A DNA stretch of 64,000 bases from Eledone cirrhosa (lineage: Eukaryota). The position numbers and the translations under genes were made by a program. The notes beneath the pieces are model-generated. The model saw only the letters and a list, made by a program, of their open reading frames with translations. It made no database searches and was not told where the DNA came from. The DNA lies in the NCBI GenBank assembly GCA_964016885.1, contig OZ024747.1, positions 91,636,001-91,700,000 on the forward strand, in the 5' to 3' direction. Below, one piece after another: positions 13,605 through 64,000 of this stretch. Position 1 is the stretch's first letter. Every line of letters starts with the position of its first letter.

Positions 13605-13775
13605 ATAGGAACCAGTAAGACCCCGACAGCCGAGTTCAAGCCGTTTCGACGGCTGAAACGGCTTGAGCTCGGCTGTCGGGGTCTTACTGGTTCCTATTAC
13701 CCACTCTACTACCTCAAGTATTGAGTACTTTGGTGCGTTATCGTCCACCTGGTTCCTTACCACATTTCTTTCGTT
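13605..13775 (+). mobile_element. Fold-back Penelope-like 3' fragment carrying the 3' half of a hammerhead ribozyme (family H1)
   Basis: Palindrome 13605-13697; GAAA-CGGCT-tgagctc-GGCTG-TC at 13655-13677; tail shared with 33034-33125 and 51508-51701; (TA)n on both sides. Confidence 0.75.
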
Positions 13776-13859
13776 ATATATATATATATATATATATATA
13801 TAATCCTTATCGAGTCTTCTTCGGATTTTAGTCTTCACATTTATTATTATTACTATATA

Positions 13860-14044
13860 GGGCGGTGAATTGGCAGTATCGGTAGAGGGTCGGTCGCCAT
13901 GCTTTGAGGCATAGTTACGGCCCTTTCCGTTCTGAGTTCAAATCCCACCGAGGGTAACTTTTCCTTTCATCCTTACGGGGTCGATAAAATAAAGTACCAG
14001 TAATGCACTGGGTATTTGCTGGACTTGTGCCAAAAGTAGAAACA
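13860..14044 (+). mobile_element. SINE family A copy with ~17-bp TSD (ATTATTATTACTATATA)
   Basis: A/B boxes; direct repeat at 13843-13859 and 14045-14061. Confidence 0.9.
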
Positions 14045-14274
14045 ATTATTATTACTATATATATATATATATATATATATATATATAATTTGGTCGTTTT
14101 CACTGCTGCTATTTATAGTGGTAGTAGACTGACCTCCCTGCCTCTGCTTCTATCTTTACACACGGCACTGGACAGAATTGCTTCCACATCATTCATTCTC
14201 ATCTCGGGAACAATTTTGAATAGCGCCAGTTCGTAATTTGAACTCGGGAATTTTATATTCTCCGAGCGAAAATA

Positions 14275-14361
14275 ACCTTCTGACGAGAGTTTATCTTTTC
14301 AATGGAGGCCCGCAAGAACTGTCCATTTATTTTTGAGACTCGAAAGCGATTCGGTAAAGGT
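14275..14361 (+). ncRNA. Type I hammerhead ribozyme (one stem III mismatch) inside a ~345-bp (TA)n-flanked insert (14087-14432)
   Basis: Stem I ACCTT/AAGGT, core CTGACGA, stem II GAGTTT/AGACTC, GAAA, stem III gCGattCGg, cleavage triplet GTA (14354-14356). Confidence 0.72.
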
Positions 14362-14569
14362 AACAATAGTAAGTACAGTGAATTTTTTGAAATTTACTTT
14401 GAAACTTTTTCTTATTTGCTAAACCTTGATTGTATATATATATATATATATATATATATATAAAGACATATATATATATATATATATATATATATATATA
14501 TATATATATATATATATATATATATATATATATATATATACACACACATACATACACACGCACATATTC

Positions 14570-14715
14570 GCAGCTCTTTCAGACAGTTTCAGTCTACTAA
14601 CTTCGAATTATAAAGCATTGATTAATGAGAAGATGCATTTGAATACGCATGTTCAAAATACTGCGTCTTGGGATCAAACTCATGATCACGTGATTACGAA
14701 GCAAGCATCTTAACG
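14570..14715 (-). mobile_element. Degenerate tRNA-derived SINE of a second family
   Basis: Reverse B-box-like GGGATCAAACTC and tRNA-like head remnant; heavily diverged. Confidence 0.45.
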
Positions 14716-17521
14716 ACAAAGTCAAGCCTACATCTTTACAACTTTTGTATCTGATATATATATATGTCATTTAATCTTATTTTCTTATTTTTCAAGTAGC
14801 ATAGCTAGACAGTATCCCACACTTGACTTTCATTAGATGTTAGATACTGCCTGGCTGGACTATCAGGCCAACGGTAGAGATCAAGTATATTTTGTTGATA
14901 TAAAATTTGTAAAAAAAATGGCACCCAGCCGATATAAATACTAATACATTTATTTATGTTTGCTGATATTCTGTTATTGTTTTAATGACATCAGTCATGA
15001 AACTGCAGCCATGCTGGGGGTGTAAACTTTACTTAATTACATCGAGCTTAGTGCGTATCTTAATCTTGTATTTATTTGGTCGATATCGTTTCATCAAATT
15101 ACTATGTAACGGGATTTTACTACAACATATCGAATTTATATAAAAATATACACAATGTTAAATAAAATTCAGTTGAGGATAATAATTAATAATTCATTTT
15201 TAGTTTAGTCAGGGAAGGAATGACCGTACCCATGAAGCTATATAAAGCCTCTAATCATGTCCAGAATGCTTTCAAAATGTGGACCATTTAGCGATGTTAA
15301 ATCAGGCAGTGGATTATGTCTAACCCCCAAGTAAGCCAAAAAGATATTTGAATTCAGATATTTGAATGCAAAGTGCCGGAAAAAATATCGTGACGCTCCA
15401 AGTACTCTGCTAATACACTGCCAGAACAAGTACATTATTTAATCAACACCTAAAGAATGAAAAGCAAAGTTGACATTGGCCAGATTTGAACTTAGTGCTT
15501 CGAGAACCTGAACAAATACTGCAACACATTGTGACCTACACTGTCTATTCGTCGGCGACTAATATAAAGTATTTGTAAATAAATATGGCCGTGCTCATAA
15601 ACATAAATATGCTCATACACAAACACACACATGTATGGATATATGCTCTCTCTCTCTCTGTGCACATTTCTGGTATACTAAGATAAAATTTAGTAAAGAA
15701 GACTTTATTGAATTAAAATATATATTAAGTTAATTTTAATTTAAAGAAAAAAACTAATAATCTCATCCAACAGATAACTGCCCGGAATAAAGAAATTTAC
15801 TCTGAATATATAATTATAGCAATTCAATTTTACATGTTTAATACAACACATGTGCCAAAACCACACACGCATACTCACATATACACACGTAAATATATAT
15901 ATATATATATATATATATATATATATATATATATATATATATATATATACATATAATGTATGTATGTATGTAATATATGTATAATATATTATATATACAT
16001 AGATATATTATATATACATATATATATATATTATATATATATTATATATATATTATATATATTATATATATATTATATATATTATATATATATTATATAT
16101 ATTATATATATATTATATATATAATACATATATTATATATATATAATATAAAATATTTTATATATATGATATATATATTTTATATATATAATATATATGA
16201 TATATATATTTTATATATATTTTATATATATATATATGATATATATATTTTATATATATAATATATATGATATATATATTTTATATATATAATATATTAC
16301 ATGTTAATAATAGTATTTATACTTATATATGAACTATATATAATTATAAATATGAAAGGATAGTTTGTTGTACTACCCGATTACCAGTAAGAAAAGTAAC
16401 TCAATGTAAATTATCAGATGTATTACAGAGCAGAAATATATTACATATATTATATAAATAATATATATATATACAGATAAAGAGGGGGGGAGAGAATGAA
16501 ACAGATTCAGAACTACCCATTGAAGATTACTAACGGCAAGATATGGAAAGTAGGAAAACAGTCTTCTAGTTAAGTTAGTTATTCATACATATGGCCTGAA
16601 ATACTTCTGCGTGATCAACTCAGTTAACTTTGCAAAAACCACAGAGACATACTTAAGCCTCCCCACTGAATAACACTATTTCAACACAACTAATTTCTAG
16701 AAAAGGCGCCCATTTACCCCATCAAAACAATTATATTTTTCTTTATTCTTTGCATTGATTAGGTAACCTGTTTTAGTTTGCCAAAAAAGATCCATATCGG
16801 AAACAATTACTTTGTAAACCCTTTTCTTACCAGCGTGTTTGTTAGTTTCTAGTAATCGACGAATGTCTTCGATTTTCTTGCTCTCAAGTTGATTCTAATT
16901 CACTTGGAGTCATCGACTCATAGAGGAAAACCATTCGCTGATGAAACCAAACTGTAAATTTAAGAGACTGTTTCCGTGAATTGATAATTTTTATAATACA
17001 TTAATCAACATATATGGTTCCGATACAATGTCATCTAAATGGGTCCAGGGTTTAGTCGTTTTGACACTGAACCTTTCCATGTTTATAAATATAATATTGA
17101 TCTATCAAAAAAGGTACAAATGATGTTATAGATAAGTTGATTGTTATTTTGGGGGCAGCTAAGAACAAAGCTATAACATAATCTGAATTCCATGAGTGAT
17201 TTTATTTACTGGCTTTTATCTCTGTAATATTCTTCAATATAAAAAAAATACAATTATTTCAAGGCTAAATGCAGAATACATCTAAATAGAACTTCGTGTA
17301 TAATTTGTACAAATCCAATCCAAAACAGGAAGCAATAATGCAGGATATCCACTGTTTGGTACAAATAACATACGGTTAAGTAAACTAACATTCAATACTT
17401 CGTAGATGTGACCCCATTCAATGTATACAAATATACATACATATATATATATATATATATATATATATATATATATATATATATATATATATATATATAT
17501 ATATATATATATATATATATA

Positions 17522-62277: not shown

Positions 62278-62388
62278 TCCTGCAAGTATGTGGAGCAGAC
62301 CTCCGAATGCCAAACCTCGCAAACTCTTTCTCCTGCATATATTAAACTGATATATATATATATATATATATATATATATATATATATA

Positions 62389-62860
62389 TGTCAACTCTGG
62401 ATGTCGGTGAGCATGTCCAGCCAACCTCAGTCTCCTCTGTGTCACTTTTGAGCTGACTTTTGGGATGCTCCCATACAGCTCCGACTTTTTCATCCTCAGT
62501 GTATACTGATTAATGTTCAGAGCCATCCTCAGCATTCTCGTGTAGCACCCATCCACGATCTGAGTGAGTCTCTTGGTCAGTGTCCAAGTCTCTGACCCAT
62601 ACAGCAGCACAGACTCCACTACAGCAATGAAGAGGCGGATTTTCAGGTCTCTACGACATCCAGAGTTGACATTGCACTCAGTGCTCCTTTGGGAGCCCCT
62701 ACATGGACACACTAGAAGAGGAAGACCAAGGTTAACATATGTTGATGCCCTAAGGACAGACACTGGTCTGTTGGAGATGCAGGATATGGCAGCGATAATG
62801 AGGGACAGAGACCGCTGGAGAGAACTCGTCCATGGATCTCGGGAATTTTACCCGCCTTAG
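62389..62860 (+). mobile_element. 5'-inverted RTE-like LINE 3' fragment in (TA)n
   Basis: Minus part ESVLLYGSETWTLTK...RLAGHAHRHPELT and plus part RHPELTLHSVLLWEP...GRPRLTYVD...DRDRWR* form one continuous ORF2 C-terminus. Confidence 0.9.
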
Positions 62861-63136
62861 ATATATATATATATATATATATATATATATATATATAATA
62901 TATTTAGAAACACACAGATACATGCGGACACACACATATATACATGAATGCATCCGCACCCAACTGTGAGTTAAGGGTGCCAACTTCACCGATGTTGCTC
63001 AATGAATGACTGGGACAGACCAATTCAGTTGAACTAGACTGAACCAGTATCAGAGTTAAAAATACATTATGAAGAGAGAAGAAACATTTAGATATAATTA
63101 GTAATAAAATGTATCATACCTAAACTGCTCCTAAAT

Positions 63137-63226
63137 TCCTCGACTACGTAGTTTCGTGGCATAAACAAAAACAATATATCATAAAGACATAGAGTCCTTG
63201 CGAGGTCTGCCGACTTATCAAGAGGA
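63137..63226 (-). ncRNA. Type I hammerhead ribozyme with U3-A8 core variant, copy 1
   Basis: TCCTC-TTGATAA-GTcGGCA...TGCCAC-GAAA-CTACGTAG-TC-GAGGA. Confidence 0.78.
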
Positions 63227-63731
63227 TACCTCATTTTACTAGTCTCAAGAACGCGTCTACACGACGTGCGAAAGAGTCCCAAAAGGCGGAGGGGGAGATA
63301 GTCACGCGATATAACGGTCGAGAAACAGAGCTAAGCCTCTTATAACCCCGAAGAAAATACCACGGAGGCGGAGGGGGTATTTATATCGAGGCCGCAGAAG
63401 AGGTGGTGAAGAAGGCGAGAAGTATGAGTAATGGAAGCTTTCCAGCTGTCCCCACACTTCAAAGATTGCTCGACCAGAGGGAGTTATTAACAATATATTT
63501 AGAAACACACAGATACATGCGGACACACACATATATACATGAATGCATCCGCACCCAACTGTGAGTTAAGGGTGCCAACTTCACCGATGTTGCTCAATGA
63601 ATGACTGGGACAGACCAATTCAGTTGAACTAGACTGAACCAGTATCAGAGTTAAAAATACATTATGAAGAGAGAAGAAACATTTAGATATAATTAGTAAT
63701 AAAATGTATCATACCTAAACTGCTCCTAAAT

Positions 63732-63821
63732 TCCTCGACTACGTAGTTTCGTGGCATAAACAAAAACAATATATCATAAAGACATAGAGTCCTTGCGAGG
63801 TCTGCCGACTTATCAAGAGGA
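63732..63821 (-). ncRNA. Type I hammerhead ribozyme with U3-A8 core variant, copy 2
   Basis: Same as 63137-63226 at +595 bp. Confidence 0.78.
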
Positions 63822-64000
63822 TACCTCATTTTACTAGTCTCAAGAACGCGTCTACACGACGTGAGAAAGAATCCCAAAAGGCGGAGGGGGAGATAGTCAC
63901 GCGATATAACGGTCGAGAAACAGAGCTAAGCCTCTTATAACCCCGAAGAAAATACCACGGAGGCGGAGGGGGTATTTATATCGAGGCCGCAGAAGAGGTG

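Follow-up and report, generated by a model that had tools for sequence, protein, structure and literature searches.

A stretch of 64,000 nucleotides (nt) from the genome of Eledone cirrhosa (NCBI GenBank assembly GCA_964016885.1, contig OZ024747.1, positions 91,636,001 to 91,700,000 of the forward strand), hereafter the window, carries several families of type I hammerhead ribozymes next to (TA)n microsatellites. These are probably the 3' ends of several coding Penelope-like elements (PLEs), mostly of the Hydra clade, together with non-coding units that were likely copied by the same enzymes, all of them joined to (TA)n. The motifs show the core CUGANGA (or its U3-A8 form), GAAA and UH, and the helices I-III of a type I hammerhead; both the U3-A8 variant (PMC4209133) and the U10.1-U11.1 variant (PMC3088659) have been published before. 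All 11 folds and all half-hammerheads listed in an earlier note on this DNA were found in place, and the families' different stems do pair around a common core, as that note had described. Its list overlooked an eighth family. The motifs in the window are:

14275-14361 (+): hammerhead of the 14k family; helix III palindromic, with one change in this copy
31050-31128 (+): hammerhead of the 31k family, intact
33342-33399 and 33636-33693 (+): hammerheads of the 33k family
51822-51861 (-) and 52521-52560 (+): hammerheads of the 52k family, both degenerate
52953-53001 (-): hammerhead of the 52.95k family, U10.1-U11.1 type
53077-53141 (-) and 54158-54220 (+): hammerheads of the 53/54k family, both intact
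61826-61870 (+): hammerhead of the eighth family, absent from the earlier note
63137-63226 and 63732-63821 (-): hammerheads of the 63k family, U3-A8 core
13655, 51581 and 44543-44569: hammerhead 3' halves

A strict type I descriptor matched three of the 11 window copies (at 31055, 54163 and 53136), whereas 40 dinucleotide shuffles of the window gave 0.025 matches on average and never more than 1. The other eight copies deviate from the descriptor; the intact fold is kept in other genomic copies of the 14k, 52k and 52.95k families. A genome sample of 599,600 called bases, taken as 60 stretches of 10 kb at even spacing, yielded 44 matches, compared with 0, 0, 1, 1 and 0 in five shuffles; frequency relative to shuffled sequence was among the tests named in the earlier note. 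Nine of these matches were discarded by eye (eight in one satellite, and one that was isolated and likely due to chance), and the 35 kept motifs fall into 16 loci and, by our own count, about 16 families. The U3-A8 core recurs in 146 of 147 matches in the partly overlapping loci of the 63k family, and in the 52.95k group 91% of the stem cells are paired, with double changes in two pairs; among 500 shuffles, the cell count was reached in 4 and the pair count in 326. An Rfam scan of the window, dominated by repeats that matched microRNA models, gave no hammerhead among the best 150 of 388 matches. Further motifs that resemble the core, at 7321, 16938, 19524, 39498, 51142, 55013 and 58219, were taken as chance occurrences and have no second copies among the genomic loci compared (these loci are designated by L numbers below). 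U10.1-U11.1 forms the base of helix II in many unrelated families (loci L134-L193). One palindromic helix III, with U at the cleavage position, is common to several of them.

Judging from the proteins encoded upstream of their relatives, the 33k, 52k and 53/54k families represent the 3' ends of coding Hydra-clade PLEs, and so do two of the half-hammerheads, those at 13655 and 51581. In the following annotation, short and long denote the two 3' end points found in each family, ORF stands for open reading frame, UTR for untranslated region and pLTR for pseudo-long terminal repeat:

13607-13774 (+): Hydra-clade PLE 3' end, a fold-back with the hammerhead 3' half (GAAA, 6-bp helix III, GUC) in both arms
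about 13803-13853: tail remnant of a separate Hydra family with an altered hammerhead core
33035-33124 (+): tail-only remnant of the 13607 family
33213-33450 and 33507-33744 (+): 33k family, two identical copies of the pLTR end of a coding Hydra PLE
44536-44733 (+): older fold-back half-hammerhead element, its tail resembling that of the 13607 family
51510-51700 (+): second fold-back half-hammerhead of the 13607 family
51725-52589 (both strands): 52k family, fold-back 3' end of a coding Hydra-clade PLE, short end 52589, long end 51725
52172-52363 (+): endonuclease C-terminus remnant of the 52k element
53044-54351 (both strands): 53/54k family, fold-back 3' UTR/pLTR of a third coding Hydra PLE, short end 53044, long end 54351
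61765-62079 (+): eighth family, coding PLE 3' end, with fragments also at 17659-17742

Copies of the 52k element elsewhere in the genome contain an ORF of 585 amino acids (aa) directly upstream of the hammerhead, in which a reverse transcriptase (RT) is followed by a C-terminal GIY-YIG endonuclease, both recognized by motif (YRDD; VVYE..SYVG); CxCx5C, CxxC and CxH are present and CCHH is not. Its Hydra-clade motifs were judged by eye against published criteria (Craig et al., 2021, PMC8557442) rather than by placement in an RT tree. The frame has 308 homologues, those listed being mostly 540-810 aa long. Among the best 120, D/N-K-T/S is found in 119, YRDD in 118, CxCx5C in 107 and an N-terminal R-W/F-K in 70; the 52k copy itself is 5'-truncated before RWK and DKT. 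Two families show DKT (locus L148) and NKT (locus L194), respectively. Within the window, the ORF at 52028-52396 has a C-terminus that resembles a PLE endonuclease. Pfam and PDB searches with the PLE proteins gave no match.

The 33k unit lies on both sides of a broken Hydra ORF in locus L194 (pLTR-ORF-pLTR), and the 53k unit forms an inverted pLTR-ORF-pLTR in locus L195. The 33k pair in the window is a local duplication that includes the TA tract; 63 nt of flank (32972-33034) were copied inverted onto the 5' end of the element and duplicated along with it. The element at 13607-13774 has its inversion point within helix II, a long tail on a single arm and TA on both sides, and the whole U3-A8 ribozyme of this family is located about 900 nt downstream of a Hydra ORF (loci L008/L199). 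The element at 44536-44733 has no second copy among the genomic loci compared. The endonuclease of the eighth family (ORF of locus L091) has a Cx4CxxC linker and was assigned by eye to the Neptune/Nematis type. Altogether, many divergent PLE families are present in the genome, about 22-60% identical to one query and belonging to at least two clades.

The remaining families differ in that no coding sequence was found with them. By sequence, the 14k, 31k and 63k families are ORF-less tandem retrozymes with units of 485, 679 and 595 nt, respectively, and one type I hammerhead per unit:

14088-14431 (+): 5'-truncated copy of the 485-nt retrozyme
30700-31534 (+): 679-nt retrozyme, with a main arm at 30787-31534 (long end) and an inverted arm at 30700-30790 (short end)
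52915-53013 (-): truncated copy of the 52.95k family, other copies of which reach at least 380 nt further upstream
62898-64000 (-): young 595-nt retrozyme array, running beyond the window into an inverted short-ended arm

No in-phase upstream Hydra ORF was found in the 20 (14k), 25 (31k) and 37 (63k) insertions inspected, and the longest ATG-initiated ORF of the 595-nt array, the unit for which ORF length was computed, amounts to 76 aa. The 595-nt arrays are dispersed and about 99% identical; the unit is also present in contigs from three studies under three organism labels (run kind unspecified), with no RNA dataset listed. Locus L194 contains at 7744-8560 a sister of this family that is 74-77% identical and has two end points in common with it. 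Cleavage is predicted after 14356 and 31123 on the plus strand and after 63142 on the minus strand. Helix III of the 31k family (L087-L110) switches between two perfect palindromes and one non-palindromic form, an alternation expected if dimers cleave. No upstream ORF was found for the 52.95k family, which was counted neither as a coding PLE nor as a retrozyme.

The earlier note had taken every family for a separate non-coding ribozyme RNA that a single TA-targeting PLE machinery mobilizes in trans. Such a view fits the three tandem families without ORFs, with their PLE-style inverted arms and tails and the short ORF of the 595-nt array; it is at odds with the location of three families and of the half-hammerheads at the ends of coding PLEs, and with the many divergent PLE families side by side. 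As a general statement it is thus refuted and very unlikely overall, holding for the 14k, 31k and 63k families only. What stands of that proposal is that PLE-type hammerheads occur in elements joined to (TA)n and that the genome has a TA-targeting PLE machinery. Mobilization in trans would accordingly be confined to these three families, for which no partner PLE was found among the loci compared. Heterologous head-to-head joints were considered as proof of trans-mobilization and dropped: only one of five cross-family abutments (L104) is such a joint, and it proves nothing because both of its arms are short-ended.

The association with (TA)n was measured for 25 terminal hammerheads, some of which are the two arms of a single insertion. 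On the 3' side, a (TA)5+ tract begins no more than 250 nt away in 20 of the 25, against 27.6% in a matched null (p 7.5e-8); at the 150 nt proposed in the earlier note, counted from the core, enrichment persists (10/25 versus 19.9%, p 0.017). It is conceivable that this link is passive, the elements accumulating in TA-rich, gene-poor DNA or themselves seeding TA tracts: (TA)5+ tracts are common (4.5% of the sampled DNA, 2.3 per kb), and some enrichment is seen on the 5' side too (11/25). This is nevertheless highly improbable, given that the element ends meet TA at fixed positions. Copies of a short interspersed nuclear element (SINE) have little or no link to TA, their ends lying within 20 nt of a tract in just 2% and 9% of 53 copies (null 3.5%). 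A preference for (TA)n is moreover in print for Hydra PLEs, 'almost all' of which target (TA)n and carry canonical hammerheads (PMC8557442).

The junctions of the fold-back insertions follow strict rules. Each family has two fixed 3' ends 65-165 nt apart, the interval corresponding to the known PLE tail, and 77 of 80 fold-back insertions combine one short with one long end: 24/25 in the 595-nt family, 46/47 in five other families and 7/8 in the 485-nt family, leaving out one 595-nt fold-back with a broken arm and one 3-nt artefact in the five-family set. A long/long pair was seen once, although the search favoured long ends. Fold-backs of the eighth family at other loci also appear to pair short with long ends. 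In 26 fold-backs of the 595-nt family, the alleles at six segregating sites match between opposite arms in 114 of 117 comparisons; for unrelated insertions the expected agreement is 52-90% per site. Full units from one insertion are 0.9 nt apart (2.2 when the largest array is left out), compared with 4.8 nt for units from separate insertions. The 3' junctions lie mostly on an internal TAT, and at about 11 of 13 end sites the modal junction, judged by eye, shows an overlap of at least three bases with the TA flank (null 0.106). Taken together, short/long pairing, a common haplotype of the arms and the TAT junctions suggest that each DNA cut is primed twice, with short stretches of RNA-DNA pairing as a guide.

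A single cDNA that folds back and copies itself, so that only one target end primes on RNA, would also give arms of common haplotype, and self-priming of this kind was put forward for rotifer PLEs from junction palindromes (PMC3846280). The 13607 family is in line with it: among 29 distinct copies, classed by eye, 20 are fold-backs that turn at helix II or its loop, eight are truncated there and one is whole, so that 28 of 29 stop or invert at this place. The tandem arrays cannot speak against self-priming; unequal arm lengths in 595-nt arrays were first taken as such a case, an argument that fails because the internal units contain the tail, and it was replaced by a test of arms in coding families. 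There, in 8 of 12 fold-backs of the coding 52k family, the arm without a tail outreaches the tailed arm on the 5' side by over 200 nt, and non-nested arms also occur in locus L195. As each arm of these fold-backs has sequence that is missing from the other, both were probably copied from RNA, which makes self-priming an unlikely explanation. In the fold-back of locus L081, the long-ended arm consists of the tail alone and does not overlap with the other arm, a configuration resembling twin priming.

The tandem arrays might instead be ordinary minisatellites to which solo pLTRs expanded locally through unequal crossover, without any circles, a model discussed by Li et al. (2026, bioRxiv 10.64898/2026.07.22.740005). 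The 33k pair, a local duplication taking in TA, and variants confined to part of an array (L201, L208) agree with it, the latter meaning that local duplication is also at work. As an account of the arrays as a whole the model appears doubtful, since the 595-nt arrays are dispersed, nearly identical and alike in their two end points, and both arms of an insertion are multimers of a single haplotype; a multimeric transcript in linear form would be compatible too.

The patterns described so far were read directly from the DNA; the mechanism that likely produced them is inferred, from the cut through both strands and the priming at two DNA ends to the pairing with UAU, the circles and the mobilization of ORF-less units in trans. 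The GIY-YIG endonuclease of the element would cut a TA tract on both strands, and each freed DNA end could pair with UAU in the RNA and prime reverse transcription, at one site shortly after the ribozyme and at another 65-165 nt further, as the junctions suggest. The two cDNAs would halt at variable points and then become linked head to head. With the non-coding units, multimers might be cut by the ribozyme into monomers that circularize and are copied by rolling circle into uniform tandem arrays, the least certain step. New elements may keep inserting beside old ones because TA tracts persist on both sides. In vitro, both strands are indeed cut and extended by a PLE, and reverse transcription begins at two internal sites (Frangieh et al., 2024, PMC11167929).

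Several points weigh against this model or the data behind it. The Poseidon PLE studied in vitro starts at a site without homology to the cut DNA, contrary to the pairing step, and its ribozyme is dispensable (PMC11167929); 8 of 9 Xenopus retrozyme dimers remained uncleaved in vitro (bioRxiv 10.64898/2026.07.22.740005). A separate coding Hydra family (L243, L244, L137) has U4 of the hammerhead core changed to A in three of three copies, which suggests spread without a canonical ribozyme. The ORF-less units have no sequence similarity to the coding PLEs and pLTRs compared with them, and the part-array variants mentioned above speak for additional local duplication. The short site of the 52k family overlaps the flank by only 1-3 bases, and the overlaps were scored by eye. 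Finally, the descriptor was tuned on motifs already seen, U3-A8 and U10.1-U11.1 being allowed afterwards, and the genomic loci represent the best-scoring copies rather than a random draw. A bolder version can be offered only tentatively: a dimeric enzyme would cut both strands of (TA)n and use telomerase-style UAU pairing at two dedicated sites of one RNA, ribozyme-made circles would be copied repeatedly from both ends into head-to-head arrays, and the genome's hammerheads, on the order of 10^5, would be among the highest densities in animals.

Scaled to the assembly of 2,995,841,428 bases in 1,796 contigs, the genome sample extrapolates to about 175,000 hammerhead motifs (bootstrap 85,000-285,000) or, counted as arms, 125,000 (65,000-190,000). 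The 3-Gb genome of E. cirrhosa would thus contain roughly 10^5 hammerhead motifs. For scale, up to 120,000 retrozyme copies are reported from the axolotl (PMC7229834), whose genome measures 28 Gb (bioRxiv 10.64898/2026.07.22.740005). First-look genome candidates, which are not copy numbers, were 2,752 (14k), 3,667 (31k), 1,581 (63k) and 1,988 (52.95k).

From their sequence features, the hammerhead families described here are new members of an already published class. The earlier note could not tell whether the families were already catalogued; the system is better catalogued than had been supposed, as Hydra-1_Obim of Octopus bimaculoides is listed with a hammerhead and a (TA)n preference in the supplement of Craig et al. 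(2021, PMC8557442). In common with the Hydra-clade PLEs of that paper are the C-terminal endonuclease, CxCx5C linker, CxxC and CxH and, in the family of locus L148, DKT, as well as the pLTR hammerhead, (TA)n insertion, inverted 5' copy and one-end tail; inverted pLTRs with a tail at one end have been described repeatedly (PMC8557442, PMC3846280). The tails are longer here (65-165 versus 30-40 nt), and there are many families instead of one. These families appear distinct, five short motifs being absent from the supplement of PMC8557442 and the Hydra-1_Obim ribozyme listed there being different. Non-autonomous head-to-tail multicopy derivatives are likewise known from MRC1 and other Chlamys PLEs, a microsatellite-biased clade; unlike the families here, most Chlamys elements lack canonical hammerheads, and they target (CA)n and (C)n (PMC8557442).

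The non-coding families resemble non-LTR retrozymes (Cervera and de la Pena, 2020, PMC7229834; Li et al., 2026) in their ORF-less units, which are a few hundred nt long, arranged in tandem and equipped with one type I hammerhead each, in their low GC content and in occurring alongside PLEs. Retrozymes of vertebrates, insects and coral have been argued to be non-autonomous PLE derivatives (Li et al., 2026, bioRxiv 10.64898/2026.07.22.740005), and the sample of that preprint includes no cephalopod. Unlike published retrozymes, the units described here bear marks of PLE integration, namely an inverted arm, two fixed ends and TA flanks. Poseidon PAc of the green anole (Frangieh et al., 2024, PMC11167929) offers a further parallel, with two internal start sites that define a tail, cutting and extension of both strands and AT-rich targets; its start site is the same for both strands and non-homologous to the cut DNA, whereas TAT junctions are seen here and the site used almost always differs between opposite arms. 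A 2026 repeat study of O. vulgaris reported 31 recently active Penelope-like families, and its main text contains neither 'ribozyme' nor 'Hydra' (PMC13282606). A literature search to which Repbase, Dfam, preprint supplements and the O. vulgaris library did not belong revealed neither a cephalopod hammerhead census nor an end-pairing count, and no published match was found for the abundance of about 10^5 motifs, the short/long pairing in 77/80 insertions, the common arm haplotype and the internal-TAT junctions; the sources just named may list these families.

Further features of the window are:

1-7300: 7.3-kb satellite of short units
12471-12722, 62131-62263 and 61667-61722: hammerhead-free fold-back family inside TA/CA repeats
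25451-26483: tandem array of about five 201-nt SINE copies
35837-35876: 40-nt palindrome
36263-37990 (+): frameshifted remnant without a Pfam or PDB match, presumably a hAT/Buster-type transposase from motifs familiar to us
62400-62847 (-): C-terminal protein remnant without a Pfam match, which we take from its motifs to be a reverse transcriptase of the LINE (long interspersed nuclear element) type

The SINE of roughly 200 nt is repeated many times across the window and looks like an octopus SINE. The genome also contains haemocyanin genes of mollusc type; one unit scores 647-655 bits against the PDB chains 1js8, 4yd9 and 6r83, which are cephalopod proteins, and at most 502 bits against single units of 3j32 and 8tnv, in line with a cephalopod host, probably an octopus.

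The value of these families lies in their scale and their junction rules, both of which bear on a mechanism that is still open: the origin of tandem and inverted PLE insertions, the preference for microsatellites and the mobilization of retrozymes are stated questions in the field (PMC8557442, PMC7229834). Thousands of young copies obeying a sharp rule, together with a 99%-identical 595-nt family, make such questions on PLEs testable in vitro and in population data. The findings would also imply that much cephalopod sequence labelled as simple repeat, SINE or unknown is PLE-derived.

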